From contig JAWXUT010000003.1 of assembly GCA_044426075.1 (NCBI GenBank), forward strand, positions 1-33,002: a stretch of DNA of 33,002 bases. Direction: 5' to 3'. Below the pieces are notes generated by a model. It did not search any database. It was given only the letters and a program-made list of their open reading frames with translations, and was not told where the DNA came from. Source of the stretch: Bacillota bacterium (GTDB taxonomy: Bacteria; Bacillota; Clostridia; Christensenellales; DTU072). Position 1 is the first letter of the stretch; each line of letters opens with the position of its first letter. Made by a program: the position numbers and the translations under genes. Below, piece after piece: positions 3 to 20,200 of this stretch.

Positions 3-3000
3 GGTTGTAATGGTTAAATATTTGGAATATTGCCCCCAATTATCGGATTGTCTGAAGGTGTCGATTTTTGACATACTTACATAAATACATAGGTTTCCGC
101 CACCCACAAAAACAATAGGTTGCCCCTCACAAACGGTGTCAGACGACGTTAAATATAGCGTTAAGTTTCCGCTACCCACGCTGAATGCGTTTTCACCCAC
201 GGTGCCCAATCTGCTAAATGTAATAGATGAAAGGTTATCTGTGCCATAAAAAGCATATTTGCCCACATCTATCACTTGCTTCACCTCAACTGTTGTTAGG
301 CTTTTAGCGCAATAAAATGCGTATTCGCCCACCGTAATAAGCGTTACATTTGAAGTTATAATTTCTTTTATAGTAGAATTATAGAATGCATATGAACCAA
401 TTTTTTCGATTCCACTTTTAATAGTATAAGTTGTGTATATTGAAGCAACGGGATATGCAAATAAAGAGCTGTCGCTAGCATCATAAACCACGCCATAATT
501 GTCAGTTGAATATGTGCCACTTGTGCCATAAATATAATATGCAGTTATGTTTTGATTGTTGTAAATTGATGTGGATTCCATATATGTTATGCCCGTTAAA
601 TCTAGCCAAGTAAGCGCGCTCATATTTGCCAGTGCATAGCCGTCTAACTCGCGCAAATTGCTTATATAAACTGCGGTTATTATATCGCGCTCACCCTCAA
701 AAACTGCGTGGTCAAGATAAGTAACTGCCCTACCATTAAAGTACTCCGGAATAACTATTACGCCACCACCGCCATTATAATCAAACAAGCCGGTACTGCC
801 GTCTTCACGCACATAATATGTGTAATTGTTGCTATAGCTGAGCCCATTTTTAATCACTTGATACCACTCGCTGGCGCTGTCACGTTCGCTACTAATTACA
901 ATTAGCTGACCCACAACGTCAATTGTATATTCGCTATATTTGCCATATGAATAGAACAATGATGCTATTGCATTTATTGCTTCTGTATCTGTACAAGAAA
1001 TAGCTATTAGCTTTTTAATACCTTCTATCTCTACATATTCATCAACATATTTTGCATAATTTGCAGCCCCTACTTCACTAAGCATTGCTGTTATATCAGT
1101 CATATAACTAGAGTAACCTATAGTGTAGCCGATGTTATTCAATAGATAAATATTGTCATCAAAAACAGCACGTAAATCGACTTCGTCGCCCGCATAAGAT
1201 ACCACAACACCTATTTCAATAGCGCAGTTTGGCATACTAAACACTTCAGATATGGATACCGTTTCTCCAGTTTCTGCACTTATATAATATAAATCATTTA
1301 ACACATAGCCGTCTTCTAATTCAAGCACAACCTCAACACTAGCAGTGCCGTATGCAGTACTTGCAACAGATATTGTGCAGTTATCGTTTTCTATAACAGT
1401 AATCTTATAACTGCTAGTATAAGATATTGGTGTCCAGAAAGCTGCATCTACTGCTAAATCACTCTTGCCCATTGTGTATGTGTATGTTGACCTTGTTGTG
1501 GCAGCGTTTATAACTATTTTTCCGTTAATTGTAAGTGTTGTTAAATAGTATCCGCTAGTAGGTATTATTGTAAATGTTACCTCTTCACCATAACTTGCTA
1601 CCTCTTTATCGGCAACAACCACACCATTTGAACTTTCTGCAATAGTTATGCCATACACCACTTCAACGGTGTACATTATAGTGACGTTTTCACTTGGCAT
1701 AACAAAGCCATAAGTTATATCCAATCCGTTTGCGGTTATTGATGTAATGCGATAACCCTCGTCTGCAACGGCTGTTATACTTACATACTCACCGCTATCA
1801 GCACTGGTTGCGCTCAATATTATTGCAGCACCCGCTGTGTTTTGCGTGCTTATTGTATACGAACCACTGCTTGCGTCTTCTGCAAATTCAGCTGTTAAAT
1901 ACATATCGCTTGTAACTAATATATAGCTTCCAAGTTCAACTTGAGCACCGTTTGCTTGCAATGAACCTTCGATATAAGTGTATCCGTCATAAGCCGTTAT
2001 CCACACGTATATGTAACTATTTTCTTCTGCTTTAGTGTAATCTACATCAATATATCCGCCGCCATATGTTTCCACCTCAATGTCATAAACGCGCACAAAT
2101 ATTGCTGTAATTTCACAATCATAATTAGGCATTACAAAACTATTTGCAGCTGAAACAACACTGCCGTTTATCATAAATCCTTTAAAAATATAATCGGATT
2201 CGGTGGTTATACCTAGTTCAACTACACTGCCCGCCGCCACACTTTCATACAATGTGGTTACGCTTCCGCCCTCTGCATCTATTATATCAATATTATAAAT
2301 ATCGCTGTCATCTATTGCTACAAATCTAACTTCAATTGTAGTTTCTTCTGTATATGCAATTATTAAATCACTCACTTCGAATCCGTTTACAACCACGCTT
2401 TCAAGCATATATCCGCTATCCGCCACAATATCAAGCACTATGTACTCACCAAGCGCGTAATAGTTTTTGCTTGGCGTTACGCTGCCCTCGCCGTCAACTT
2501 CAATGTTAACCGAACAAACCTCTTCTTCATAATCAATTTTACTAAATTCGCACATTATGTATAAATCATTGCTTCCCATAGTAAATGTATTATTTGCAAT
2601 TGTAACTGTTGCATCTAATGTGCTGATACTGCTTAGATAATATCCCACTTCGGGCTGAACAGAAATTGTTATTTCGTCCCCCATATTCGCGGTTGTTGTA
2701 GAACAAATTATGGTGCCATTATCGCTATCCATTACTATAATTTCGCATTCTGAGAGTTCAACCTCCGCAGTAACCACAACTGCTTCCGCTGGCATCAAAA
2801 ATGAAGTGCCCTCAATATATACGCCGTTTACTGCAATACTGCCCTCAACCAACTGATATCCCGCATCTGCATAAGTATAAACGCGGATTGTCTCATTAAA
2901 ACTCGCTTCACTCACGCTTACTTTAATATATCCGTTATCGCACTCACCCGCAGTAAGTGTATGTGAACAAAGCATACTATCTATCCAACCCGCATATAAT

Positions 3001-3284
3001 GTGAGGTCTTTGCTGGCAGAAAACAAATATGCGCGCACTGTTTGCGTACATTCAGCATCATAATACCACCCCAAAAAATCATAACCCGCTTTGGTTGGGT
3101 CTGTAGGCAGAGTCAAGCCGTCGCCCACATTAAGTACTGTTGAGGCTACTTCGCTTCCGCCATTGCTGTCAAAAGTTATCGTACACGTTTCACTTGTTGA
3201 ACTTGTATCCGTCCCGCAAGCAAGCAGTGTGCAACTTAAACACAACACTAATATTAAAATTAAAATAAAAGATAGCTTTCTCAT
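3..3284 (-). CDS. Large surface lipoprotein: InlB B-repeat / divergent bacterial repeat domains followed by BspA-type leucine-rich repeats; partial, stop codon just outside the window
   Basis: Manual translation from ATG 3284: MRKLSFILILILVLCLSCTLLAC (lipobox LLAC), then TITFDSNGGS...PTDPTKAGYDFLGWY (InlB B-repeat). The same frame at the left edge reads CIYVSMSKIDTFRQSDNWGQYSKYLTITT, typical of a BspA LRR C-terminal cap. No stop-terminated minus-strand ORF is listed here, consistent with an open frame to the edge. Confidence 0.85.
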   Translation of the reverse strand, partial: MRKLSFILILILVLCLSCTLLACGTDTSSTSETCTITFDSNGGSEVASTVLNVGDGLTLPTDPTKAGYDFLGWYYDAECTQTVRAYLFSASKDLTLYAGWIDSMLCSHTLTAGECDNGYIKVSVSEASFNETIRVYTYADAGYQLVEGSIAVNGVYIEGTSFLMPAEAVVVTAEVELSECEIIVMDSDNGTIICSTTTANMGDEITISVQPEVGYYLSSISTLDATVTIANNTFTMGSNDLYIMCEFSKIDYEEEVCSVNIEVDGEGSVTPSKNYYALGEYIVLDIVADSGYMLESVVVNGFEVSDLIIAYTEETTIEVRFVAIDDSDIYNIDIIDAEGGSVTTLYESVAAGSVVELGITTESDYIFKGFMINGSVVSAANSFVMPNYDCEITAIFVRVYDIEVETYGGGYIDVDYTKAEENSYIYVWITAYDGYTYIEGSLQANGAQVELGSYILVTSDMYLTAEFAEDASSGSYTISTQNTAGAAIILSATSADSGEYVSITAVADEGYRITSITANGLDITYGFVMPSENVTIMYTVEVVYGITIAESSNGVVVADKEVASYGEEVTFTIIPTSGYYLTTLTINGKIVINAATTRSTYTYTMGKSDLAVDAAFWTPISYTSSYKITVIENDNCTISVASTAYGTASVEVVLELEDGYVLNDLYYISAETGETVSISEVFSMPNCAIEIGVVVSYAGDEVDLRAVFDDNIYLLNNIGYTIGYSSYMTDITAMLSEVGAANYAKYVDEYVEIEGIKKLIAISCTDTEAINAIASLFYSYGKYSEYTIDVVGQLIVISSERDSASEWYQVIKNGLSYSNNYTYYVREDGSTGLFDYNGGGGVIVIPEYFNGRAVTYLDHAVFEGERDIITAVYISNLRELDGYALANMSALTWLDLTGITYMESTSIYNNQNITAYYIYGTSGTYSTDNYGVVYDASDSSLFAYPVASIYTTYTIKSGIEKIGSYAFYNSTIKEIITSNVTLITVGEYAFYCAKSLTTVEVKQVIDVGKYAFYGTDNLSSITFSRLGTVGENAFSVGSGNLTLYLTSSDTVCEGQPIVFVGGGNLCIYVSMSKIDTFRQSDNWGQYSKYLTITT

Positions 3285-3318: not shown

Positions 3319-3455
3319 GTGAAATTTGTTCCGCAATGTTGTTGAGAATATATTTCTTACTGCTAAATAATGCCATATTTACACACTTGCATATATTATT
3401 GTTAGACTACTAGTTTAATATGCACTCTTTTGCATATGTTTGCATAATTTTCTCT

Positions 3456-3492
3456 AAAAAAAAGGACTATAAAGATTTTTCTTTACAGCCCC
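3456..3492 (-). terminator. Intrinsic terminator ending the frr-ispG-polC-like operon
   Basis: Minus strand GGGGCTGTAAAG-AAAAAT-CTTTATAGTCCT followed by a T run, 8 nt after the stop at 3500. Confidence 0.8.
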
Positions 3493-3499
3493 ATTTAAA

Positions 3500-5053
3500 T
3501 TAAGCAAGGTCTTGCATCGCACACAAATTTTTGTACACCCTTGCGGTTGCCACGGCATCGAACACCGCCCTATGCGCATTGGTAAGTTCAACATCAAACA
3601 TCTTGCACAAGTTGCCGAGTTTATAACTTTTGATTCGCACCTTTTTACGCGCAAGATCTAGCGTGTCTACAACTTTATTGTTGAATTCATACTTGCATTT
3701 TTTGCCCGCAATAACTAAAAATCCCATATCGAAACTGGCATTATGCGCCACAAGCACAGCATCTTTGCTGAATTTATAGAAATCTGCTATTACATCACCA
3801 AGTTCGGGGGCGTCAACCACATCTTCGTCATATATATGATTAACAGCACTTGCGCCCGCGGGAATTGGTTTGTTGGGTTTTACTAGCGAACCAAACTGCT
3901 CCACTATAACTCCGTCTACAATTTTACAAGCTCCAATTTCAATTATCACTTCTGTAGTTGGACTGAAACCCGTTGTTTCTAAATCAAACACAACATGCAC
4001 GCCCGATAATGCTTCAATTTTTTCTTCCACATCAAAAAGCCCCGCTTGCTCAGTATTTTCACAGTGCTCCGGCCTTACCGCAATGTAGTCATCATATACA
4101 AAATTGCATTCTTCATCTGACTCTTCTTCTACTAAGTTTTGATTTATAGTGCATAGCGCTGCCCTAAACATAGTCATACAATTTTTGCCGTTATATGCAT
4201 CCATTCTAATAGGGCCTTCAGCAACTAGCTCAACACCGTCTGCAACTTTGTCGGCAAACTTTGTAACTTGGCTATCAAATTTAGGGAAAAATTTTACATC
4301 TATCACACCATTTGTATCATTTAATTTGAATACGAAAAATGTTTTACCCGTGTTTTTAGACTCTATTCTGCGCAATCCAAGCACCTTGCCACACACCGTT
4401 TCTGATGCGCTTTCGGAATTAATTACATCTGTAATGTAGCGTGGAATTTTTGTTATTGAACCCACCAACATACCGTCGTCAACTAGGCTAATATCCATTG
4501 TGTGCGACTTTTGTGCAATTTCTTTTCGCGTGGGTTTTTTCTTTGTGAGCACGGCAATTTCATCATCTTCAGTTTCGTGTAGAAAGGTTACAGTTGCAGC
4601 TTCCATTACCTTTTTTTCTAAATATTCTTCCAATTTCTCTTGAATATTGTTGGTTTGCATAAAAGATAACAAGTATGCTGGCAGCTTCATTGTGAGCGCT
4701 ATTGTGTCATACTCAATTTCAGTTTCAACCGTTCTGTCGCTTATTTTTGGGAACACTAGTGGGAGTTCTTTTAAGAAAAATTCCATAACACATCTTGTAA
4801 TATATGTGTTGTCGCTAACGGTTTTTCTGTATGTAATTTTCACACTGAAGGTTTTTGGCACTAGTTCGCCAATAAACGCGTCAACTTTGTTTCTGAACTC
4901 CTCATTAAGCATACTATCATAGTCGGAGGCTTTTACTAACAATATTATCTCTAATCTGTTTTGCACAACTATTGCTTCCGACAACTTAAAAATGCGCTCC
5001 CGTTCAGAAAGCTTTTTATTAAATTCAAACATAAATAAACTTATGCCGTCCAT
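3500..5053 (-). CDS. PolC-derived 3'-5' exonuclease (PolC-like N-terminal domain + OB fold + DEDDh exonuclease; no PHP or polymerase domain)
   Basis: ExoI VFDLETTG, ExoII AHNASFD, ExoIII HRAVFDA; OB-like segment VCGKVLGLRRIESKNTGKTFFVFKLNDTNGVIDVKFF; usual polC position after ispG; only 517 aa. Confidence 0.8.
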   Translation of the reverse strand: MDGISLFMFEFNKKLSERERIFKLSEAIVVQNRLEIILLVKASDYDSMLNEEFRNKVDAFIGELVPKTFSVKITYRKTVSDNTYITRCVMEFFLKELPLVFPKISDRTVETEIEYDTIALTMKLPAYLLSFMQTNNIQEKLEEYLEKKVMEAATVTFLHETEDDEIAVLTKKKPTRKEIAQKSHTMDISLVDDGMLVGSITKIPRYITDVINSESASETVCGKVLGLRRIESKNTGKTFFVFKLNDTNGVIDVKFFPKFDSQVTKFADKVADGVELVAEGPIRMDAYNGKNCMTMFRAALCTINQNLVEEESDEECNFVYDDYIAVRPEHCENTEQAGLFDVEEKIEALSGVHVVFDLETTGFSPTTEVIIEIGACKIVDGVIVEQFGSLVKPNKPIPAGASAVNHIYDEDVVDAPELGDVIADFYKFSKDAVLVAHNASFDMGFLVIAGKKCKYEFNNKVVDTLDLARKKVRIKSYKLGNLCKMFDVELTNAHRAVFDAVATARVYKNLCAMQDLA

Positions 5054-6069
5054 TAGTATTCCTCCACCATTTTCATAAGTTCAGAAATTATATCTGCGTT
5101 ATTTACAGTTTTAACTGCGTTGCCGTCTTTGAACAATATTGATTTCCCTTTGCCACCGCAAACCCCAATATGCGCGCCCTTAGACTCGCCAATTCCATTT
5201 ACCGCACACCCCATAACTGCCACTTTAAGTTGCTTTTTTAGTCCCGCTGTAGCTAACTCCACCTTTGAAGCATATTCTTCCACATTTATAACCGTTCGTG
5301 CACAAGTTGGACAAGCTATAACCTCAACAAAATCTTTGTCTTGCCCCACTGCACGCAAAATTTGTCTGCCTAAAACAACCTCTTGATAGGGGTCGCCAGA
5401 CAATGAAATGCGCATTGTGTCCCCAATTCCTTCAGCAAGCAACGCGCCCATTGCAACCGCCGATTTAACCGCACCATATTTTATTGTGCCCGACTCCGTG
5501 AGCCCGATATGTAAAGGATACTGTGAAATTTTATCAAGTGCCCTATACGCCTCAATTGTCTTACTTACATCGCTAGACTTAACCGCAAGTACAATGTCGG
5601 TGAAGCCCTCATCTTCAAGTAGCTTTGCGCTGTCTAAACACTTTAGCGCAAGCTCTTCTGCAGTCACTTCGCGCTTTTTAAAAGAACCTTGATTTACACC
5701 AACCCTTATTGGCACGCTACACGCTTTTGCCATTCTTGCAACTTCTCTTATACCCTCTTTTTGTAGGTTGCTAGGGTTAAGCCTTATCTTACTTGCACCC
5801 GCTTCAATTGCGGCAAGCGCTATCTTATAGTCATAATGAATATCTGCAACTATAGGTACATTAGTTTCTGCGATAATAAGCTTTAGGGCTTCTGCACTAG
5901 CAAAATCGGGTACCGAAACACGCACAATATCAGCACCAAGCGATGCGGATTTGTTTATCTGTTCAACAGTCATTTTGATATCAGTTGTAAGAGTATTTGT
6001 CATAGTTTGCACACTAATCGGTGCACCACCACCTATACAAATATCTTTTACATAAACACACTTTTTCAT
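5053..6069 (-). CDS. ispG: HMBPP synthase (flavodoxin/ferredoxin-dependent)
   Basis: IGGGAPISVQTMTNT, PIVADIHYDY, PLHIGLTE, GIGDTMRISL, CPTCAR and AVMGCAVNG. Start moved to ATG 6069 (MKKCVYV) to avoid overlap with rseP. Confidence 0.96.
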   Translation of the reverse strand: MKKCVYVKDICIGGGAPISVQTMTNTLTTDIKMTVEQINKSASLGADIVRVSVPDFASAEALKLIIAETNVPIVADIHYDYKIALAAIEAGASKIRLNPSNLQKEGIREVARMAKACSVPIRVGVNQGSFKKREVTAEELALKCLDSAKLLEDEGFTDIVLAVKSSDVSKTIEAYRALDKISQYPLHIGLTESGTIKYGAVKSAVAMGALLAEGIGDTMRISLSGDPYQEVVLGRQILRAVGQDKDFVEVIACPTCARTVINVEEYASKVELATAGLKKQLKVAVMGCAVNGIGESKGAHIGVCGGKGKSILFKDGNAVKTVNNADIISELMKMVEEY

Positions 6070-6082
6070 TAGTAACTCCTTG

Positions 6083-7192
6083 TCACAGCAAGAACAGTTG
6101 GAATATATCTGCCAATATTGCAAAGGCAAATATAGCCAAGAATCCTACAGTATGAATAATGCCCTCAACCTTTTTGGGGACTGGTTTTTTAAAAATCATT
6201 TCAATCAAGCAGAACACCATGCGTGAGCCGTCTAGCGCGGGCAAAGGCAATAGGTTCATAACAGCAAGGTTAGCCGAAACCAAACACACAACATAAGCAA
6301 GCATTGCAGAACCGCCCCTTGACGCATCTGCTATAGCTGTAATTGTGGTAATTGGGCCACCCGCACTTTCCATACCAAGTTGGCCGGTTATTAGCATTCC
6401 GAGTATGGCAATTATCTTGTACACCAAGAAGAACATATATGAAAAACTTCTGCCAAGTGCGGTAAAAAAGCTAAGTTGTGTTGTTACAACAGTTGATGCA
6501 AAACCATAACCATAATATGTTGCAATGCTTCCGTCATCGTTATATTCATAAACCCACACACCGTCATCGTCATAAGCACCAAGCTGATATTCCGATTTTG
6601 TGAGTGTAAGTGTTACTTTTTCGCCGTCACGAAGCACTTGTACAACCGCGGTATCGTTATCTTCTGCAAAGATTCCCGTTGCGTCGCTTGCTTCTAATAT
6701 ATTAATTTGTTTGCCGTCTACCTTTAAAATTGCGTCTCCCGCTTGCAGCAACTCTACATTTGCGCTGTCGCTATATGTTGAAGCCACGCTTAGTGTTATT
6801 TGGCCGCTAAATGTAAATACAAATGTTATTATTATCCACGCCGATATTAAGTTGAAAAATGCACCAGAAAATAGTACAATTAACCTCTTCCATGCGGGTT
6901 GATTATTGAATGCTGTAGGGCTTTTTGAATTGTCATCTTCGTCTTCAAACTGGCAGTATCCGCCAAGTGGAATTGTTCTTATTGCAAAAATTTCATCGGA
7001 TTTCTTGCTTGTTCTCTTATAAATTGCGGGTCCGAAACCCACTGAAAATTCCAATATTTTGAATCCTAGCAGTTTCCCCGCTAAGTAATGACCACCTTCG
7101 TGTATTACAATCATAAACATAAGCGCAAGTAGTGCCAGCAGAATATAACCCGCTGTTTCCATAACGCTTGCAAATGTTGCCATTAGTACCAT
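6083..7192 (-). CDS. rseP: RIP/site-2 zinc metalloprotease, M50 family
   Basis: HEGGH zinc motif, FSVGFGP, PLGGY, PDZ-like segment, NLLPLPALDG; synteny with dxr and ispG. Confidence 0.93.
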   Translation of the reverse strand: MVLMATFASVMETAGYILLALLALMFMIVIHEGGHYLAGKLLGFKILEFSVGFGPAIYKRTSKKSDEIFAIRTIPLGGYCQFEDEDDNSKSPTAFNNQPAWKRLIVLFSGAFFNLISAWIIITFVFTFSGQITLSVASTYSDSANVELLQAGDAILKVDGKQINILEASDATGIFAEDNDTAVVQVLRDGEKVTLTLTKSEYQLGAYDDDGVWVYEYNDDGSIATYYGYGFASTVVTTQLSFFTALGRSFSYMFFLVYKIIAILGMLITGQLGMESAGGPITTITAIADASRGGSAMLAYVVCLVSANLAVMNLLPLPALDGSRMVFCLIEMIFKKPVPKKVEGIIHTVGFLAIFAFAILADIFQLFLL

Positions 7193-7195
7193 GTA

Positions 7196-8320
7196 CTATT
7201 TACCTCCGTTTTCTATCGCTGTTAAAGTATATTCTCTAACCGCCCTATCAATACTAAAAATGTCATTTAAATCTTTACAATCTGCAAAACTAAATTTATT
7301 TAGCGCCGATTCAATAACATCGCTCACGCCATAAAATGAAATTTTGTCTTGCAAAAACGCTTCAACAGCCACATCATCTGCAGCCACTAGCACTACGCCT
7401 AGTTGCGGTTTAGCAGCCACCTCTAGCCCCAGCTTCAAACAAGGGAACCTATTTAAATCGGGTGCCTCAAAATGCAGTGCGCCCATATCCTTTAGTGATA
7501 ATTTGGGTGTAGCGGAAGCTAAGCTGTTGGGGTATGTTAACGCATACTGAATGGGAAGTCGCATATCTGGCGAACTAAGGCTTGCCTTAAAACTGCCGTC
7601 TCTGCTGCCAACTAATGCGTGCACAATACTCTCTCTATGTATAACCACATCAATATCATTTATACCAAATAAATGGCGTGCCTCAATAATTTCTAGACCC
7701 TTGTTCATAAGAGTTGCGCTATCAATAGTAACTTTCTTGCCCATTTTCCAGGTGGGATGATTAAGCGCCATTTTTGCAGTTGCGCTACACAACTCCTCGC
7801 GCGAGAAATCTCTAAATGCGCCCCCTGATGCCGTTAAAACTAGCGACTCACCCTCACTACTCTCGTCAATACAGCGCCAAAGTGCACTGTGCTCAGAATC
7901 AACTGGGCGGATAAGTTTGTTATGCTTTTTTGCAGTTTCCATTAAAAAACTACCCGCAGAAACAATACTTTCTTTATTTGCTGTGGCTAGTTCGGCTGAA
8001 CTTTGTAGCACTGCGATACTAGGCAATAGTCCCGCAAGACCCCCTATTCCGTTAACTACAACGTCCGATTTCTCATAAAATTCTGGATAATTTAAAATAT
8101 CTGGTGCGCAGTTTGCCTCTGTTCCGTTGCGATAAATAGTATCACCACACACCGCAACATCGGGTAAAAATTCTGCAATTTGCGCCTCTAAAACTGATTT
8201 GCTATTTTTGGCAAGCAACAAACTGACTTCAAATAAGTCGCTGTGCTCGCGTATTACATCAAGGGTTTGCCTACCGATAGAACCACTTGAACCAAGAACG
8301 CCTACCCTAATCTTTGTCAT
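7196..8320 (-). CDS. dxr: 1-deoxy-D-xylulose-5-phosphate reductoisomerase
   Basis: LGSSGSIG, ANKES, PVDSEHSA, LTASGG, HPTWKMGKKVTIDSATLMNKGLEIIEA. Confidence 0.97.
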   Translation of the reverse strand: MTKIRVGVLGSSGSIGRQTLDVIREHSDLFEVSLLLAKNSKSVLEAQIAEFLPDVAVCGDTIYRNGTEANCAPDILNYPEFYEKSDVVVNGIGGLAGLLPSIAVLQSSAELATANKESIVSAGSFLMETAKKHNKLIRPVDSEHSALWRCIDESSEGESLVLTASGGAFRDFSREELCSATAKMALNHPTWKMGKKVTIDSATLMNKGLEIIEARHLFGINDIDVVIHRESIVHALVGSRDGSFKASLSSPDMRLPIQYALTYPNSLASATPKLSLKDMGALHFEAPDLNRFPCLKLGLEVAAKPQLGVVLVAADDVAVEAFLQDKISFYGVSDVIESALNKFSFADCKDLNDIFSIDRAVREYTLTAIENGGK

Positions 8321-9156
8321 GCAACCACTTGTGGCAAGAATGACATAATTGCAACCATAAGTGTCATTGCAAATAAGATACTATCAAGCCTATCCATTAC
8401 GCCACCGTGTGACCTAAATATGTGGCTGAAATCTTTAATATCTAGTGCGCGCTTAATTTTACTTGCGCCAAGATCGCCAATTTCAGAAACAATCGCAATA
8501 AGTACACCAATTATGCTTACTATTAAAATTGGATTAGATAAGTTTGCAAATTGATAATTTATATAAGCTGGGAAGCCTGCAAGTTCAAATATAGCATACA
8601 CTGTAAGTGCACCAGCTGCGCCGCCAACTAACCCAAAAATACAACCAGAATAGGTCTTTTTAGGGCTGATATGAGGGAAAATCTTTGGTCCTTTTAGTAG
8701 TACGCCAAAATAGAATGCAAAAGTATCGCTTCCCATAGCAGCAGCAAGCGCTATTAATATTGGCATCATTCCGTAAGTTAGGTTCAAGTAAACTCCAGTT
8801 GCAAGTAGCAAAATTGGATAAACTATTATAAGTACAGTAATTAAAAAGTCATTTAAAGACATTCCTTTTGTAAAAATATAGTCGCCAAATGCAAACAAAA
8901 AGCTGAGCCCACAAACAATTAGATATCCTTGTGATCCGTAAAAATATAGCATAGGATAAATTGCCAAAATCGTCACAACAAGCGTGAAAATTTTAGGTCT
9001 ATATCCCTTTTTTGTAAATACTGTGAACATTTCATATGATGAAATAATCATAAATAACAATATAAGTGCGTCAAACACATATTGACTAATAGACGTCAGG
9101 GCAATTATTCCTAATAGCAATGCTAGCATCACTAGTCCTGTTATGGTTTTTCTCAT
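8317..9156 (-). CDS. cdsA: Phosphatidate cytidylyltransferase
   Basis: Multi-TM protein with SDTFAF, ISPKKT, GDLGASKIKR..IKDF..HGGVMDRLDS. Confidence 0.94.
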   Translation of the reverse strand: MRKTITGLVMLALLLGIIALTSISQYVFDALILLFMIISSYEMFTVFTKKGYRPKIFTLVVTILAIYPMLYFYGSQGYLIVCGLSFLFAFGDYIFTKGMSLNDFLITVLIIVYPILLLATGVYLNLTYGMMPILIALAAAMGSDTFAFYFGVLLKGPKIFPHISPKKTYSGCIFGLVGGAAGALTVYAIFELAGFPAYINYQFANLSNPILIVSIIGVLIAIVSEIGDLGASKIKRALDIKDFSHIFRSHGGVMDRLDSILFAMTLMVAIMSFLPQVVA

Positions 9157-9848
9157 TTTAATACATCTCCAAATTTTCTAACTATTCCCTTGTATTCATT
9201 TACGACCGATTCTAGATCTTCATAAGACAAATCGGGCCAAAGTTTATCCAAGAAGAATAGCTCAGAATAAACTGTTTGCATAGGCATAAAATTGCTTAGC
9301 CGCCTATGGCCACCGAACCTTACAACTGCATCTGGATTAGGCACCCCTGCTGTGTATAAACACGCCTCAATATCGCTATATAACACCGCCGAATGGTGAT
9401 TTATAAAACCGCGTTTTTCGATTAAGGAATTAAAAGCTCTGGCAAGTTCTTGTTCTCCGCTGTAATTAACGGCAATTATAACTTCTAGCCCTTTGTTGTT
9501 TAATCCCTTGCTGTTTACCTTAGCAATTAGTGCAAGTAAAGTGGGTGGAAGCACAGATAAATCGCCTATAAATGACACTTTATATTGCTTTTCTGTCATT
9601 AATGGAAGCATATACTGCTCCAGAAACTTAGCAATCGCGCCAAATATACCAACAACCTCTGCGGGATCGCGTTTGAAGTTTTCTGCACTAAAAGCGTAAA
9701 GTGACAAATATTTAATGTCAAGCTGGTTAGCATATTCAATTGCTCTAATAACCGCTTTTACGCCCTCTTTATGGCCTTCGGTGCGGGGCAAACCTCTAAG
9801 TTCAGCCCACCTACCATTGCCATCAAGAATTAATGCAAGGTGCTTCAT
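9153..9848 (-). CDS. uppS: Undecaprenyl diphosphate synthase (cis-prenyltransferase)
   Basis: HLALILDGNGRWA, GHKEG, YAFSAENFKR, RLSNF; lies between frr and cdsA. Confidence 0.94.
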   Translation of the reverse strand: MKHLALILDGNGRWAELRGLPRTEGHKEGVKAVIRAIEYANQLDIKYLSLYAFSAENFKRDPAEVVGIFGAIAKFLEQYMLPLMTEKQYKVSFIGDLSVLPPTLLALIAKVNSKGLNNKGLEVIIAVNYSGEQELARAFNSLIEKRGFINHHSAVLYSDIEACLYTAGVPNPDAVVRFGGHRRLSNFMPMQTVYSELFFLDKLWPDLSYEDLESVVNEYKGIVRKFGDVLK

Positions 9849-10423
9849 TAAACGCTCATTATCTCCTTTTCTTTATCAGCAGTCATCTTTTCGATGGTTG
9901 CAATTGATTGAGAAACCTCTTTATCAACATCTTTCTCATAAACTTTAATTTCGTCTTCTGTTATGATGCTATCTTTTTTAAACGAACGCAAATCATCAAT
10001 CGCATCACGCCTAATATTTCTAACCGCAATTTTAACTTGCTCGCTCATGGCCTTAATATCTTTGCCAAGAGCACGGCGTCTTTCTTCGGTAAGTTCTGGG
10101 AACACCATGCGGATAAGTTTGCCGTCATTATTAGGTGTAATGCCCACATTAGCAGCAGTAATAGCCTTTTCTACTGCCTTAATAGCGCTAGCATCCCAAA
10201 CAGAAATGGTCAACAATCTTGCTTCAGGAATAGTTATGTTAGCCATTTGATTAATTGGGGTAGGTGTGCCATAGTAGTCAACAAGCACCTTATCTAGTAT
10301 GTGTGCGTTAGCGCGACCAGCCTTCATAGCTAGCAATTCGCTTTGATAATTAGCAATTGTTTTTTGTGTTCTAGTTGTAAGGTCATCGAAAACCAATTCA
10401 ACTTCTTCAATCTCATATGCCAT
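9848..10423 (-). CDS. frr: Ribosome recycling factor
   Basis: AGRAN..LD.V.VDYYG.PTP, PELTEERR, KIAVRNIRRDA, KEKEIM; RBS AGAGAGG. Confidence 0.97.
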   Translation of the reverse strand: MAYEIEEVELVFDDLTTRTQKTIANYQSELLAMKAGRANAHILDKVLVDYYGTPTPINQMANITIPEARLLTISVWDASAIKAVEKAITAANVGITPNNDGKLIRMVFPELTEERRRALGKDIKAMSEQVKIAVRNIRRDAIDDLRSFKKDSIITEDEIKVYEKDVDKEVSQSIATIEKMTADKEKEIMSV

Positions 10424-11154: not shown

Positions 11155-11286
11155 AGTAAAAAGCCAGAGATTGCGTGCACAACGAAGCGAACGCCCAATT
11201 TTAAAAATCCTAATGTATCAAGATATACCTGAATTTTTAAAATTGGGCGCTCGTAAAGTTGTGTGCGTGATATATGGCTTTTTACT
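11155..11286. repeat. Long imperfect palindrome (about 132 bp) overlapping the giant gene's stop codon
   Basis: Nested arms AGTAAAAAGCCA/TGGCTTTTTACT, TGCGTGCACAAC/GTTGTGTGCGTG, CGCCCAATTTTAAAAAT/ATTTTTAAAATTGGGCG, TGTATC/GATATA. Confidence 0.9.
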
Positions 11287-14200
11287 TCTTAGAGAAGTGG
11301 AAAGAAACCAACCCCACAAGCAATGCTCCAACTACTGCTAAAATTATCCAGAATAAGATTGAACTTGTGGCATCTGCTAGTGCTGTTTGAGCGGTGTCGT
11401 ATACGAATACGAATGGTGACAAGCTGTCTGTTTCAAATACTGCATAGCCGTCAATTATTTCGTAATTTACAAAGCTAGAAACGCCGTCGTGTACGTGAAT
11501 AATTTCAAATCCCAAATCCGCTAGTTCTTCTGGAACAAGGATTTTTACAGTTATTGTGCCGTCTGGTTGCACTTCAAAGCCAGATTCTGAAAGAGAAATA
11601 TCAAAAGCTTTAACTGCGGTGTAACCACTTAATAGCACCAATTCTTCAATTGTTTCAATTTCTGTAATAACAGAAACTACAAGGCTGAAGTTAGGATCAA
11701 TACCGTTTTCGGTTGTAATAACAACTTCGTCTTGCAGAAGATTGTCATCCACATTTTCTTCTACATTAAGTTGAGCACTTTTTAGTACAAAGGTAAATGT
11801 GATATCAACTGTTGAGCCGTCTGTCCAAACGCAGCCGTCAATCAATGAAACGGTTACTGTGTATGTGCCCGCTACTGATTGAACGTTGCCAGAAATTGTC
11901 ATTTTTGTACTATCGTATCCAACTGGTAAATATGTAACGTTTTTGCCAACCGTAGTAAATACAGTGGTGTTTGCTGTTGGAATAGCAGCTGTTCTTGCAG
12001 TTAGCGTGCTGCTTAAGGTGTTAAGAAGCGCAATTTCTTCCACAAGAAGCGCGGCAACGTTTGCATCTAAGCTGTTGTAAGAAGCAATGGCGTTTGCGAT
12101 ATCGTCTTTATCGTCATACACAGCTGTTTCAGTTGTTAAACTCAAAGCGTAAGCGTGTGTTGTTGCAAAACTTTCTGCAACAGAAGCCGCAGTTACTAGT
12201 GTGTATAATGTAGCAGTTTGTACAAATGCGTCGAGTTCTGCGTATGTTGCGCAAGCATTTAAGGTTGTGATATCGGCTGCCATTGCTGATTGCAAAGCGG
12301 TAAAGCTAGCTACTGTGTAATCGGCTGCAACAATATCATCAGCAATCGCGTTGATTTCTGCAACCACGTCTGCAATATTATATTGAAGATCTGTTGAGTA
12401 AGCTGCTGCTTTAGCTGCAAGAGCGTCAACATCATATGACTCAATTGATGTTAGAGATGTCATAGCAGTTACTTTTGTTTTTGCGGTTGCAAACAATGCT
12501 GAAATTGCTGTCCATTCGGTTTCTCTGTAATCGCTTTCTGTGTAGTTAGCAGAAATAGTATTGATTTGCGCAAGCACATCGTCTCTTGCTACCTTTACAT
12601 CAGAATCTTCACTTGTATAAGTTGCGGTGTAAGTAACGCTTGCTGTAGCTATAACAACGTCTGTATCCCAACCAGTAAATACATATTTAATATCACCAAC
12701 TTCTTTTCCAACAACTTCTGGAACAATTGGCATTTCATTTAATAATGTGTAAACTACAAGGTCGCCAGTGTAGCTGAATACATCTGCATCCACTATAAAT
12801 GTAATTGTATATATTGTTTCATAAATCTCAAATGAAACAGTTGCGGTAACTTCTTCACTATTGTATTCAAATGTAGCTACAACATAGTATGTGCCCGCTT
12901 TAGCATTTGCAATATCTGTGACCTCAACTTCGCAAGTTTCATCAGAATAGTAAGCATAAGTTGCAGAAATCACTTCACCATTTACATAAGTTGTAGGAGC
13001 ATTTGCTGTGCTTCCATAATACCAATTTGTAATAATAACTGTTGGTTCTGCGGTTGAAGGAGCAAGAATTTCAAATGAAAGGCTAGTTGAAGTAATTTCA
13101 TCGTAGTTATCAGTTTCATCGATAACAGCTTTAGCGTAGTAAGTACCAATTTTTGTTGGCATACCAGCAGTATAAGTGCCGTTTTCTTCTGTGCTGAATA
13201 CATAATATACATCATCTTCGCCAAACATAGCTTCAACTGTAAACTCGCTAGGCTCTTCACCATAATACCAGCTATTGCCACCTATTTGGAACATAATGCT
13301 ATTTGTAGCCTTAGTAACTGTCAATGTGCCAGTTTCAAAAGTGATATCATAATTGCTATCTGTTGCACTTGGTGCTATTGTATATTCACCAACATTGCCG
13401 GCATAAACAACTTCGTTAGAATCAACAACTGTGTAAGTGATTGCAAGTGCGTCTTCGCCAACCAATGTTACAATTGTGCTTTTGTATGTTGGTGTATTTC
13501 CATATGAAATAGATATATCATCTGCAGTTACTGTAATTTCTTTAGCTGAAACCGTAAGTTTTCCATATACAATAGAAACATTGTAGTTTGAGCTTACAGT
13601 AACATTAGGTACAATATTATATGAACCCACAGCGCTTCCTACTTCATAAGAACAAGTGTATTCAACAGTAATCAATTTTTCATCAGCCTCAAGAAGTGAA
13701 CCACTTGTAATTGTGTATCCATAGCTTGCTGTTGGGGCTGCGTCGCCATATGTGATTGTAGCGCTTGCTGCAGTTACAGTAATTCTTTTTGTGCTAACCG
13801 TCAATTTGGCATCAGTAACAGAAACAATATAGTTGTCGCCCGCTGTTGCTGTTGCGGTAATAGTATATGAACCCACGTTGCCTTCGTAATCAGAAACAGC
13901 GTATTCAATTGTAATCTCATCACTATTAAACAATCCAGTAACCTTGCTTGTGTATGAAGGTTCACTATCACCATAAGTAATGGTTTCAGAGTTGATAATT
14001 ACTGAAACAGCCGCTTGTTGCACCTCAATTTTTACAATTTTATAAACATCTGAAGTGTAGTTTGATGAATTATTAACGCTAATCTTAACATAGTATGTGC
14101 CCGCATCTGTTGGAGCTGTGCTTGTATAGTCACCATTCTCACTTGTGCTATATGTATACACAATTGTTCCAAAATAATCATTAGCTACAGCGCCACTAAT

Positions 14201-17200
14201 TGTCTGAGCCGCACCATTGTAAGTGTATTCAGTTGCTACCCCAGTAGTTGAAATTGTGGTTGTAGCTTGATTAATTACAAGAGTAATAGTAAGAGCTTCA
14301 GAAGAATTGCCATCCTCCAATATCCACTCATAGTTAGCAGTATCTTCTAACGTAACCGAACCAGTATAAGTTCCAGCATTTAACCCAGTAGCTTGTAAAA
14401 CCGTGTACAATCCATCGCTATCTGCACTAACATCAGTAGTAACTTGAGAACCATCGTATGTTTCCGTAAATGAAACATCTGGTGCAGTTACTGTTGCTTT
14501 TGAAATTACAAATAGAACTGCTGAGCTTGTTACTAAATAATAGTCATCAGTTGATGCAATACTTGCTTTTACATAATATGTACCTGCATTTGTTGGTACT
14601 GTACCTGTATAGTCACCATTTTCGCTATCGCTATATGTGTACGTAATTGTATCTGTACCGAACTTTGCTGTTGCTGATGGTGCGTTAACTGTGTCGCCAT
14701 AAGTCCAATCTGTAATTGCAAGGTCTTCTGTGAACTCATTGTCAGCTTGTATTACTTTAAATGTAACTTCTGTTGTTGTTATGCTGTAGTTATCATTAGC
14801 CGTATAACTAATTTTAACTGTGTATGTGTCTACATTACTACCAACTTCATAATCACATGATACACTAATTTCAAAGTCACTTAAATCAGCGGCCAGTATA
14901 TTACTTGTTGTGTACTCATATGTTGGCGCTTCACTATAATAGGCAATTTCTTCTGCAGATACAGTAGATGTAATTGTTGCAGAACGCTGTCCGATTGTAA
15001 ATGATATTGCACTGCTCGTTGCTGATGCATAGTTTTTATATGCTGAATCGTCTGCTACAGAAACGGCTTTTACATAATATGTGCCAGCGTTTGTTGGAAC
15101 AGTAGTTGACCAATCTGCATCATCTAAATCAGATGTATAATAATATGTTATTGTATCTGTACCACCAAAAGTAGCTGTTGCTGATGGTGCGTTAACTGTG
15201 TCGCCATAAGTCCAATCTGTAATTGCAAGGTCTTCTGTGAACTCATTGTCAGCTTGTATTACTTTAAATGTAACTTCTGTTGTTGTTATGCTGTAGTTAT
15301 CATTAGCCGTATAACTAATTTTAACTGTGTATGTGTCTACATTACTACCAACTTCATAATCACATGATACACTAATTTCAAAGTCACTTAAATCAGCGGC
15401 CAGTATATTACTTGTTGTGTACTCATATGTTGGCGCTTCACTATAATAGGCAATTTCTTCTGCAGATACAGTAGATGTAATTGTTGCAGAACGCTGTCCG
15501 ATTGTAAATGATATTGCACTGCTCGTTGCTGATGCATAGTTTTTATATGCTGAATCGTCTGCTACAGAAACGGCTTTTACATAATATGTGCCAGCGTCTG
15601 TTGGAACATCTCCTGAATATGTGCCATCTTCCATATCACTATATGTATAGGTAATTGTACCACCAAAAGTTGCTGTTGCTGTTGGTGCGTTAGCTGTGTC
15701 GCCATAAGTCCAATCTGTAATTGCTAAATCGGATATAGTATTTGTAGCTTGTGTAATTGTAAGGGTTGCTGTCATACTGCTAGGAGCCTTATAGTTAGCG
15801 TCACTTGTTTCAAATGAAGCTGTAATTGTGCCAGAGCCTACATTTGTTACGCTTCCGCTATATGAAACCGTAATATCTGAATTTAGCGCTACGCCATCAG
15901 CAAAAGTCAAAGAACTTAGCGATTGTTCAGAACCATTGTAAACTGAACTACCATTTTCAAATGAAACACCAGTCATATCATAATCAGCCTTAGCTATTTT
16001 AAAGTCAAATGTTTTTACTGCACCTTCTGCCCACTCGTAGTTAGTTGAGTCGTTTAGGGTTAGGGTGTAGGTGTAAGTGCCAGCGTTTGTTTGGGTTAAA
16101 GAGTATTCTTCACCATAATTAATTGTGTAGAATTCACTTGTAGCTAGATTATAAGTTTGTGCTGTGCCGTCGTAAGTGAACTCTGTGCTATCTGCATCGG
16201 GGCTAGATACTTTTGCTTTTAAAACAGCAAGTGTAGCGTTTTGTGATGCAATCAAAGTAAAGTTGTTGTTTGTATTATCATATATAGAATAAGTTACATA
16301 ATAAGTTTTATCTGCAATCAAAGCAGAAGACTTTACCTCTTCAGTTCTATCTTCATTTGAATAGAAAACAGTTTCAATATACCACGAATTTGAATAATTC
16401 ACTGCAGCGCTTACTTCATCTTCAATTTGAAGTGCCGTTACACTATATGCGCCATTGTAAACCGCAGTATAGCTAAGGGTTGGCAACGCAATATCATCCT
16501 TTGTATAACTCGCACTGCTATTTAGTATTTCAATAAGAGCCACATTGCCAGTGTAAGTTTCCGCATAGTAAGTTGCATCCCCAAAACGAGACCAACTGCC
16601 ACTTTCTTCTGTTATTGCAGAGAATGTAGAACTATTTGAATCAGCGATAGTAAATGAATCACCCACGCTATATGAACCAACAGTTTCGTCATTTAAAGTT
16701 ACTGAAACAGTTTTTCCACTTAATGTTGTAACATCTGATGGTGTGCTTGATAATCCATAATCACTGCTATTACCTTTTTGATAAGTATACTCAGCGTCAC
16801 CGTAAGAATAACCAGATTCAGCAATATCAAGTGCATTTGTAAGCACTAATTTGTTTGAGAAAACAGTGTTTGTGGTTGCACCAGAAGCTGAAACCGATGA
16901 AGCAGAATTATATCCATAACCAGAAGTAATTAAACCAATTACTGGATATGCGTTAGATGCACTTACATTAAAGAACGTATTAGTTACATCTAAATACAAA
17001 TCGCTTACTTTATTTTGTGCAGTAGATGTAGATGTGTCAGCCGCAATAACTGCGCCATAGTTACATGTTATTGTCGTAGGAGCTATTGAAGATAATGCAA
17101 GACTAGCTAAAGTAACAGCACAATTTGATATAGTTGTACCTGTAGCATTACCGCAAAATCCACCTACAGCAATAGTTAACGTGCCATTAGCACTTTGAGA

Positions 17201-20200
17201 ACCATACAAAACACCTTGAATATTTACAGTTGAATTTGATATACTTCCGCCAGATGAACTACCTGCTATTCCACCAATCAGTCTAACCTGATTGCCACTA
17301 GCGCGCAAGCTAGTTATTGTAACACCAGAAGCTACAGATACATTAATATTACTTATTGTACCTTCCAAATAACCTGTAAGCAATCCAAATGTTATTGTAT
17401 TTGTGCCATTTGAATATTTGTATGTAGCCGTAGATGTATAAATCAATGTTAAGTTTTTAATTGTACCATAACATTCTTGAACAAAGAAACTTGTGTTGTT
17501 GCTTGTGCTACTTGTGTAAGTCACAGTGCCAGAAAATGTTATTGTATATCCATTTCCATCAAGAGTGTATCCACTAGCAACTTTTCTAACAGCTGTTGTG
17601 CTAAAATAATTAGTGTCAGTAGATAAATCTACAACTAAATCACATGTTAGATAAGCATTGCCTGTGCCAGAATTTAGATATTCATAAAGTGATTCTGCAT
17701 CAGAAATTGCAGTGCCGCTTGCATTATAATAGCCATCTAGCACTGTGCCAGACTCAACTGCGCCATAAACATCAATTAAATCTGCATCGCCAGATAGGTC
17801 AAGCGCTTCTAGGTCTGTGGTTTTTTGCGTATCATCTTCGCCTGAATCTGCAATAGCAATTGTATAAGTGGTTACATTGCTAATTAGCCTATCGCCATTA
17901 TATATAGATATGTATACATTATATGTGCCTGACCTTGTAGGAGTATTGCTTGACTCATAAACAGCGCTAGCGCCACTATAGTATACAGAAACTGTAGCAT
18001 TTGCCTCAATTATAGCAATAAGATCTGTATCACTAGTAACACTGCTAATATCTTGTGAAGCATTTGCGCCATAGCTATATGTTATATCTGCACTATCACT
18101 ATTGTCATCTGCACTATCACTATCGTCAGTTATCACAGCCAATTTTTGCATTGTTGCTGTATAAGACAAATTAGTTGTGCTAGTACTACTATTATCATTG
18201 TAATAAATTACATCTGCAAGTGAATATGTACCAGTGTATCCACCAGCAACATAAGTGCTGCTAAACCTTGCCCAATCACTATCGTTTTGTGTTAGAGTTG
18301 CTAATATATTGCTATAATCAATGTTGGTTGCGGATAGATAAATTGTAAATGTAGCAAACAAGCCTTCATCTTCATTGTATCCCGCAACAAAGTCAGTTGC
18401 ATTGTCTCCAGTCATTGCTAACGCTGGTGTGTTGTAGTCTGATAAGTCATAAATTGAACTAGTTGTAGTAACATCATCATCTAAATCAACACCATAATCT
18501 AAACCGTCATCTTTTGCTTGCAATAAATACAAAGCTAAAACTGTTGGTGTCGCTTCACCTGAATCATATGCACCAGAAGCATATAAACCTATTTTGTTTG
18601 TATCAGTTGAAACACAACTATAAAAGTCATTTGAAACATCCAATATCATATTACTACTTTCGCCTGGACTAGCTGATGTAGCTTTACCAAAAGCCGCACC
18701 GATATAAGATGTAGTATCTGCATAACTAATTAATGAATTAGATTGCAAAATTACTGCAGAATTGCTAGCAGTAGTAGCATATTCGCCACTTATTCCACCA
18801 ATATCAGCATTAACTGCGTTTTCTGATGTTGCAAGAGAACCCTCTATATTCACCGTACAATTTGTTATAGTTCCAACACTCGCGTCTGCATTAGATCCTA
18901 CAATTCCACCTATAGCATAATGGCCAGTAGTATTGTTAGTGCTAGCTAATTCAATAGTAACTTTATCTGACACATAAACATAAACATTATCAATTGTGCC
19001 ACTCAAATAAGCAGTTACACCACCCCATTGTATGTTTTGAGAACTTGATGCTCCCATATTTGTTATGGTATAGGTTACAGGTGAAGTTGAGGTTGTATCA
19101 TATATAAAACTTAAATTTTGCACAGTTCCAGAAACATTGTGTATTAAAAAGCTCGTTCTAGTTAGAGTTGCTGATATAGTATCTGATATACTAACATCTG
19201 AACTTGCATAGAAGATTATAGAATAACCATTGCCTTCAAGTGTGCAACCGCTTGCAACATTTCTTGCTGTTCCATTATAACTAACATCAGCTAAATCTAT
19301 ATAAATATTGCATGATAAATATGCGCTACCTGTTCCGCCTTCCAAATATGATATCAACTCACTTGCTTTTGAAATTGCAGTCCAACTGCTATCAATTTCA
19401 TGATTTTCACCAACTGTGCCAGACTCAACTGCACCATAAACATCTATTAAACTTGCGCTACTTGATAAATCGAGGGAAGTTAAATCTGTTGTTTTTTGTG
19501 CTGGGTCTTCAATAATCTCTAAAGTGTAAGTTTGGGATACAAAAGTAATGTTATTGTATGCTATTTCACAATAAACTGAATATGTACCCGCTGTTGTAGG
19601 CACTGCAGATTGTGATGCATAATTTGTTCCCGAATATTGCACATTTAATGTGCAATATGTATTTAATCTTGCTACAATATAAGAATTATTAATAATATCG
19701 CTTATTTTAAATTCAGCGGATAGTGTATCATATACAGTTTTGTCATAGTCTGTATCACTTGGTGTAACCACTGCCGTATTTTCTGTAATCTCATAAGCAA
19801 TAGTTTCACTGCTGTTCAATATAATGTCTGCAATGCTAAATGTGCCAGTATAACTCTCAAAAATATTGTCTCCGTTAAATCGACACCACGCGTTCTCATT
19901 AGTTTGCGTTACTGCAAAAAGAATGTTTGTATCACTAATTGTAAATGAAGAAAACAAACTATCTGATACACTAGTAACACTACCTGTTCCACTATCCACG
20001 CTTATACTCGTTGGTGCGGAATAATTATATAAATTAATTATGCTTGGTGTTGATAATGTATTGTAATAGTTTGAAGAAGTAGAGTCAGCTGTAGAAGTAG
20101 AAGTATAAGTTTTGGTTGGTAATGATGCAGGAGCCTCGCTCAAATAAATCAAATCATCACTATAGTTTGCATCCTCACCATCATAGGTTGTTATTATGCC

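Follow-up and report, generated by a model that had tools for sequence, protein, structure and literature searches.

The locus of the gene

The DNA analyzed here, hereafter the window, is the whole stretch of 33,002 nucleotides taken from contig JAWXUT010000003.1 (positions 1 to 33,002 of the forward strand) of a Bacillota bacterium (assembly GCA_044426075.1; GTDB lineage Clostridia, Christensenellales, DTU072). On its minus strand, the gene at 3500..5053 encodes a protein of 517 amino acids (P0001), with an ATG start and a stop codon at 3500-3502, which a preliminary description of this DNA had taken for a PolC reduced to a polymerase-less, stand-alone proofreading exonuclease, coupled to ispG by a TAATG overlap at the site where Firmicutes usually carry polC. 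Our analysis bears out the open reading frame (ORF) and the overlap, in which the ispG stop codon and the ATG of the gene have one base in common (...GAATACTAATGGAC...), and the identity of ispG is backed by PF04551 and NF001540. The co-oriented genes frr-uppS-cdsA-dxr-rseP-ispG, identified with Pfam and NCBIfam models, lie upstream (5053..10423, minus strand).

The gene ends in a clean stop, followed at the operon end by an intrinsic-terminator-like hairpin of 13 pairs (3492-3463) with a T-run (3455..3492, minus strand); three terminator-like sites were observed in the 2-kb region, compared with 1.3 expected. A perfect promoter-like site, TTGACA-16-TATAAT, is found at 3318-3291, between the hairpin and the next ORF (3..3284, minus strand). 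This ORF, of at least 1,094 amino acids, carries a lipoprotein-like signal, InlB B-repeats, a Listeria-Bacteroides repeat, and BspA-type leucine-rich repeats; it is a surface or lipoprotein-like protein and not a polymerase remnant, in line with the earlier statement that no such remnant is visible downstream.

Domain architecture of P0001

AlphaFold2 modeled the whole of P0001, with a mean predicted local distance difference test score (pLDDT) of 88.5, as two alpha/beta N-terminal subdomains, a disordered linker, an OB fold, a second linker, and an exonuclease domain (Exo). Subdomain NI (residues 1 to 80; 4814..5053, minus strand, like all coordinates in this section) is defined by the model and by hhalign alignment to the PolC N terminus, and the KH-like alpha/beta subdomain NII (residues 82 to 160; 4574..4810) by the model and by positions 138 to 331 of the PolC model NF001688. 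The pair, hereafter the N-terminal domain (NTD), reached a pLDDT of 95.1 when modeled alone. A low-confidence linker (residues 161 to 187; 4493..4573), with pLDDT below 50 for residues 164 to 181 and the least conserved segment of the protein, leads to the OB fold (residues 188 to 303; 4145..4492), within which PF01336 matches residues 219 to 285. The OB-Exo linker (residues 304 to 351; 4001..4144) stands in place of the N-terminal PHP half of PolC and contains QAGLF (residues 336 to 340; 4034..4048), found by motif scan, a pentapeptide of the beta-clamp-binding type. The DEDDh 3'-5' exonuclease (residues 352 to 512; 3518..4000) is recognized by RNase_T PF00929 at residues 354 to 507 (E 3.1e-34) and contains all five catalytic residues, D357, E359, D442, H494, and D499, as expected from the preliminary description. 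The C terminus lies only 5 residues past the modeled Exo domain.

The best NCBIfam match of P0001 is the PolC model NF001688, at 175.4 bits against a cut-off of 873, and the second PolC model, TIGR01405, gives 148.4 bits against a cut-off of 1043. P0001 covers NF001688 positions 418 to 586 (Exo) and, weakly, 138 to 331 (NII and OB), while positions 332 to 417 and 587 to 1445 have no counterpart. Pfam detected no PHP or polymerase family in P0001 even at E<=5, and both PHP halves are missing, as had been claimed. Likewise, none of the Pfam families of the PolC N terminus was found on P0001 even at E<=5, and profile-profile comparison was required for this region. The mapping against PolC by profile and structure that had been proposed as a check thus aligns the NTD pair, the OB fold, and Exo, with the PHP and polymerase parts absent.

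Since the OB-Exo linker is conserved, it is more than a mere gap. We considered its motif V.P..Y...Q..LF as a relic of the PolC PHP segment VQAFP.AY..K, and alignments made with and without the OB and Exo flanks fell in the same register, but without flanks the match had an E value of 0.18 and a probability of 0.3%, and the candidate was rejected.

Searches with the fold of the NTD (Foldseek and VIA-align) returned mostly common KH-like or ring-building alpha/beta domains. Residues 519 to 591 of Escherichia coli tau (5fku_E) matched NI weakly (Z 6.0, root mean square deviation [rmsd] 2.5 Å over 69 residues, rank 38), a score within the common-fold range, and many KH-like folds outscored this tau segment against the NTD. 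Timinskas and Venclovas reportedly proposed in 2011 a fold like that of tau domain V for the PolC NTD, a proposal with which the weak match of the modeled NI would agree, without proving it.

Descent from PolC

When the short-form family, as we call P0001 and its homologs of similar architecture, was compared with the NTD and OB regions of 30 PolCs by hhalign, family residues 10 to 295 aligned over 269 collinear columns with a probability of 99.1% and an E value of 1.8e-18. The parts also align separately, the NTD (residues 1 to 160) with an E value of 2.5e-7 and the OB fold with 5.7e-15. A profile of the N-terminal 348 residues of the short forms (A2) matched the N termini of full PolC ORFs of 1,338 to 1,499 amino acids in sister families, at E values from 1e-7 to 1.5e-20, for instance over profile positions 13 to 287 in genome G113 and 10 to 297 in genome G030. 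The N-terminal 300 residues, on whose kinship to PolC the preliminary description had made its reading depend, are thus PolC related. By BLASTP, the Exo domain is 42 to 45% identical to PolCs of the same order, and in one PolC, residues 87 to 288 are also collinear with the N terminus (E 0.017). The top PDB match of the P0001 model in Foldseek was 9qpc_A (380 columns, E 1.1e-19), which is described as the PolC of Enterococcus faecium (PMC12592400).

The position of the gene tells the same. Relatives with a full PolC show the order ispG-polC-rimP-nusA, so that the locus is indeed the usual polC site. Among 48 short-form loci from public genomes, almost all of them metagenome-assembled genomes (MAGs), ispG or rseP is directly upstream in 47, the 48th having only 102 nt upstream, and rimP is downstream inside the fetched flank in 41. 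The window itself retains only the upstream half of the polC-type position, with the surface-protein gene at 3..3284 occupying the place that rimP-nusA has in relatives; the absence of rimP-nusA downstream, which the window has in common with its three closest relatives (L013 to L015), is a later local rearrangement. In loci L021 to L023, L026, L030, L035, L037, L043, L045, L046, and L048, rseP is directly upstream, and neither dxr nor ispG was found within the flank; at the short-form locus, some of the clade seems to be without methylerythritol phosphate-pathway genes.

In a tree built from 528 columns of NTD, OB, and Exo, all 35 short forms fell in one group with an SH-like approximate likelihood ratio test (SH-aLRT) support of 100, and in a tree from 167 columns of Exo only, the 31 short forms included did so with a support of 98. 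Four short forms were left out of the second tree and three PolCs out of both, as their Exo I had been missed by the motif pattern. In both trees, rooted with the Planococcus PolC, the short forms are placed among clostridial PolCs. According to these results, the short-form gene descends from polC by evolution and has inherited its position, and one origin of the short forms is the simplest reading.

Replacement of PolC across the order

None of 24 genomes of the same family contains a full PolC above the cut-off. In all 24, matches to the PolC model stay under this cut-off, and the sub-cut-off matches listed are an Exo-bearing ORF of mostly 510 to 554 amino acids and a DnaE of about 1,160 to 1,290 amino acids. 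Outside the family but within the order, 11 of 16 genomes have a full PolC. We then considered a wider sample of 131 evenly drawn genomes of the order, including that of the window (G000), in which the short form was called with profile A2 at E<=1e-20 and PolC with its model at E<=1e-80. The short form is present in 62 of the 131 genomes, distributed over 17 families, in ORFs of 500 to 561 amino acids, excepting contig-end fragments and one open frame of 850 amino acids; PolC is present in 68 genomes of 24 families. The two sets of genomes do not overlap, and none of the sampled families is mixed. The remaining genome, G061, has an ORF of 466 amino acids that falls in the short-form group, so the 63 PolC-less genomes consist of 62 with the short form and one with this 466-residue version, and the co-occurrence with polC loss that the preliminary description had proposed to look for is found. 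The absence of PolC is not due to incompleteness, since several of the PolC-less genomes are 99 to 100% complete.

This distribution also disposes of the idea that the gene is an assembly error, a nonsense truncation, a strain-specific deletion, or a decaying pseudogene peculiar to one genome. The source is a fragmented MAG, which might have favored such an artifact; it is refuted by the recurrence of the same architecture and length in 62 of the 131 genomes and, across independent assemblies, in hundreds of protein clusters, by the clean stop followed by a terminator-like hairpin, and by the invariance of the catalytic residues described below. A single truncation would not account for the loss of both PHP halves either, as had been argued from the outset. 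We therefore regard the short form as very probably a lineage-wide PolC derivative that replaces PolC in a clade of gut Clostridia.

Two genomes of the same family as the window's genome show two Exo matches each. In G003 (C35:11836-13417), the two stand in tandem, in a frame of 523 amino acids and in one of 203 amino acids with a stop, and in G013 they are on contigs C8 and C2. These double matches may reflect duplication or decay of the short form.

Conservation of the short-form family

A word-indexed homolog search gave 820 matches at E<=0.001, and the best 120 of these are nearly all 499 to 554 amino acids long, with a similar content of OB and RNase_T domains. In an exhaustive search, 339 clusters (50% identity) were obtained at E<=1e-30, nearly all of 500 to 535 amino acids and aligned end to end. 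In the databases these proteins are named only "exonuclease domain-containing protein" or "epsilon subunit family exonuclease." The nearest homolog of P0001 among the matches listed is only 56% identical; synonymous sites would therefore be saturated, which makes the ratio of nonsynonymous to synonymous substitution rates unsuited as a measure here, and conservation was read from the residues.

An alignment of 38 members, with identities down to about 27%, shows no variation at D357, E359, D442, or H494. Among 242 members, D357 and E359 are found in all, D442 and H494 in 241, and D499 in 240, which agrees with the expectation that relatives conserve the architecture under purifying selection. 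Exo is the best-conserved segment, with a mean frequency of the commonest residue of 0.59 versus 0.30 to 0.39 for NTD and OB; in the linker region, C301 (212 of 242), Y323 (226 of 242), and P328 (236 of 242) are conserved as well. Every short-form member terminates with the Exo domain, and all 38 aligned members, as well as the 62 genomes, retain NTD and OB in full.

The last observation bears on an alternative in which the remnant is mainly structural, its NTD and OB organizing the fork through contacts with DnaX/tau, DnaE1, or the single-stranded DNA template, and its nuclease is secondary. Full retention of both N-terminal parts would speak for it, given that a bare Exo would be enough for proofreading, and so would the resemblance of NI to tau and the apparently intact PHP proofreader of DnaE1 described below. 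However, it is Exo that is best conserved, its five catalytic residues are nearly invariant, and the tau-like match does not rise above what common folds give; we consider a mainly structural role unlikely.

A relocated clamp-binding-type motif

Pentapeptides of the QxxLF class bind the beta clamp. Of 238 short forms, 200 have a Qxx[LIMFV][FLY] motif 17 to 26 residues ahead of Exo I, and 175 have the strict form Qxx[LIMF]F, compared with 2.9% (loose) and 0.5% (strict) in control windows of 35 amino acids from the same proteins. In PolC, the motif lies in the last 16 residues in 45 of 48 proteins and before Exo in 0 of 45, whereas it is in the last 16 residues of none of 242 short forms. The C-terminal clamp-type motif of PolC has thus been lost and replaced by a motif in the OB-Exo linker, where, in the AlphaFold2 model, the QxxLF segment lies between two folded domains. 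A complex prediction for the clamp dimer with short-form residues 296 to 515, both from the relative G004, scored 0.29 against a mark of 0.34 in a run without controls, and is no evidence on binding either way.

The rest of the replicase

The window comes from a MAG, G000, which is 89% complete and whose 151 contigs total 1.68 Mb. We were able to identify in it a single C-family polymerase, a DnaE1-type alpha subunit split by an assembly break into fragments of 357 amino acids (C86:4341-5411, plus strand) and 827 amino acids (C55:5199-7679, minus strand), which abut at positions 355 and 357 of NF005298 and score 476 and 865 bits. Its domains, PHP, pol3_alpha, fingers, HhH, and C-terminal OB, are those of the DnaE architecture. 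With the PolC model, no PolC was found in G000; apart from the short form, it gives DnaE-type matches only. The sole PF00929 match in the assembly is the short form, and the genome search for polC, dnaE, and dnaQ that had been suggested earlier thus returned no polC, one dnaE, and the short form as the only RNase_T-type exonuclease.

A split PolC, in which a gene elsewhere would supply the PHP and polymerase half and the two proteins would assemble again, had been named as a possibility that would change the picture. Some room for it is given by the 89% completeness of the assembly and by the existence in Clostridia of PolC variants without Exo (PMC3919608; also genome G035, described below). 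It is practically excluded by the matches in the own genome, where the PolC model detects only a DnaE-type polymerase, by the lack of any match at E<=1e-80 in the 63 PolC-less genomes of the order, several of them 99 to 100% complete, and by the sole alpha subunit, whose PHP-pol-fingers-HhH-OB order is that of DnaE and which scores with DnaE models.

The DnaE1 of G000 aligns with the alpha subunit of Thermus aquaticus (2hpi) at an E value of 1.2e-85, and in its PHP motifs HLHxHT, LDG, TDHGN, GxE, HL, C, and NDxH every residue is kept relative to 2hpi. By the pattern given in a recent survey (PMC12926913), this PHP domain would be classed as active, and its site is apparently intact. A dnaN gene (TIGR00663) was not found in the 89%-complete G000 assembly; the relative G004 has a normal dnaN of 366 amino acids.

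In a crude count over the 20 G000 contigs of at least 20 kb, about 75 to 77% of 382 ORFs are on the majority or G-rich strand. The values reported for strand bias are 78% in PolC bacteria and 58% in non-PolC bacteria (PMC11040001), and our estimate nears the former, although it is rough, biased upward on short contigs, and partly circular. The clade offers a test case for the link between PolC and strong gene-strand bias proposed in that work.

Relation to known replication proteins

With PolC (NF001688/TIGR01405; structures 3F2B and 9QPC), the short form has in common the NTD pair, the OB fold, and the DEDDh Exo, in the same order and at the same genomic position. It differs in the lack of both PHP halves, of palm, thumb, and fingers, of HhH, and of the C-terminal clamp motif, and accordingly in length, about 517 versus about 1,400 to 1,480 amino acids.

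As a stand-alone DEDDh proofreader-type protein beside a DnaE-type polymerase, it also resembles DnaQ/epsilon. It passes the epsilon-family domain model TIGR00573 (125.7 bits versus 71.5), and its Exo fold superposes on epsilon with an rmsd of 1.7 to 2.1 Å. However, it falls below the epsilon equivalogs TIGR01406 (105.3 versus 222.7) and NF004316 (100.7 versus 196), it is longer at the N terminus by 350 residues that derive from PolC, and it ends at Exo without the C-terminal alpha-binding segment. Epsilon likewise has a clamp-binding motif beside its Exo domain, but there the motif follows Exo, whereas in the short form the clamp-type motif precedes it.

PolCs without Exo have been reported to make up 6% of PolCs, all from Clostridia or Negativicutes save one extra copy in Thermotogae (Timinskas et al. 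2014, PMC3919608). They are likewise a natural uncoupling of exonuclease and polymerase in the same bacterial class, with the complementary outcome: there the polymerase was kept and Exo lost, whereas the short form keeps NTD, OB, and Exo. A PolC of the same order as the window's genome (G035:C232:2681-5788) covers only model positions 203 to 406 and 607 to 1444, apparently without the Exo insertion, and the same genome, 51% complete, has a separate Exo ORF of 312 amino acids on contig C169. The same study describes a DnaE1 with an N-terminally fused DnaQ-like exonuclease (PMC3919608), in which a DEDDh domain is likewise combined with DnaE1, but through a fusion of independent origin, while the short form is a separate gene derived from PolC.

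A 2026 survey describes three polymerase combinations only, DnaE1 only, PolC with DnaE1, and PolC with DnaE3, and treats Clostridia as PolC with DnaE1, on the basis of species with complete genomes (PMC12926913). Literature searches covering the text of papers turned up no account of a PolC cut down to NTD-OB-Exo, nor of Clostridia that lack PolC.

Proposed role of the PolC remnant

The data support a reduction of polC in the common ancestor of a large clostridial clade, in which the PHP halves, the polymerase core, and the C-terminal tail with HhH and clamp-binding motif were all lost and NTD pair, OB, and DEDDh exonuclease remained as one protein of 500 to 540 amino acids. They also support the earlier reading of a lineage that replicates with DnaE only and keeps a PolC-derived remnant, putatively an epsilon-like subunit working with DnaE. 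We propose that the DnaE1-type alpha, as the single C-family polymerase, would replicate both strands, and that the PolC remnant would act as a 3'-5' proofreader in trans at the DnaE1 primer terminus. The sliding clamp would hold the remnant at the fork via the QxxLF motif that would have arisen in the OB-Exo linker after loss of the C-terminal one; single-stranded DNA would be the partner of the OB fold, and a further replisome component that of the N-terminal domains. That the short form is a clamp-tethered trans-proofreader for DnaE1 is a reading we hold with moderate confidence, in which we infer catalysis, clamp binding, and cooperation with DnaE1. A precedent is that the DnaQ domain of Bacillus subtilis PolC is reported to be able to complement DnaE3 proofreading in trans (PMC12926913).

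The motif and the domain could also serve outside the replicase, in a clamp-associated exonuclease for repair or processing (mismatch repair, end trimming, or work on Okazaki fragments or stalled forks). Many proteins with clamp-binding motifs are repair factors, the next-best structural and NCBIfam matches are DEDDh domains fused to other modules, e.g., of the DinG type, and as the sole RNase_T-type nuclease of the assembly the short form may cover several tasks. We nevertheless deem a role purely in repair improbable, in light of its direct descent from the replicase's own proofreader, the place of polC that it keeps in the conserved frr...ispG-X-rimP-nusA array, and the absence of linked repair genes within the window.

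Several points weigh against a clamp-tethered proofreader for DnaE1. All metal-ligand positions of the DnaE1 PHP domain are kept, so DnaE1 may proofread alone and the exonuclease may have another task. The short form is without the C-terminal alpha-binding peptide that tethers the epsilon of E. coli, QxxLF-type pentapeptides are short, and 38 of the 238 members are without even the loose form. The genome of the window is an incomplete MAG (89%, 151 contigs), with dnaE split across contig ends and dnaN unassembled; the trees are quick searches, and they do not settle the sister group of the short forms. Association with DnaE, the clamp, or DnaX is something that we infer.

If a proofreader docked to the clamp by its new internal motif is nonetheless accepted, the clade would have a fourth kind of replisome, with DnaE1 as sole polymerase and a PolC-derived NTD-OB-Exo subunit for proofreading, a possibility that we put forward only tentatively. 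PolC is regarded as the essential replicase of Firmicutes and one of their hallmarks, and here a clostridial clade has performed a natural experiment, in which the PolC polymerase was dropped and NTD-OB-Exo could not be. This natural loss makes the role of the poorly understood N-terminal region of PolC, and proofreading of DnaE in trans, directly testable. If the proposal is true, NTD-OB-Exo would be an autonomous module of PolC, which may act in trans also in ordinary PolC bacteria, and abundant gut commensals would be without the target of PolC-directed antibiotics. For PolC inhibitors such as ibezapolstat (PMC12592400), the distribution of the short form is relevant to the question of which gut commensals do not have the drug target.

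Other features of the window

The usual rpsB-tsf-pyrH-frr neighborhood is broken in the window by an ORF of 3,637 amino acids (11282-22195, minus strand) with a SASA (sialic-acid-specific acetylesterase) domain, five MBG_2 domains, and one GLUG motif. An NCBIfam search of this ORF gave zero matches, and its product is probably a very large protein of the cell surface or one active on carbohydrates. Farther along, the segment 30884-31979 (plus strand) contains an ORF of 145 amino acids resembling MazF/PemK toxins, together with recX (221 amino acids), whose start it overlaps.

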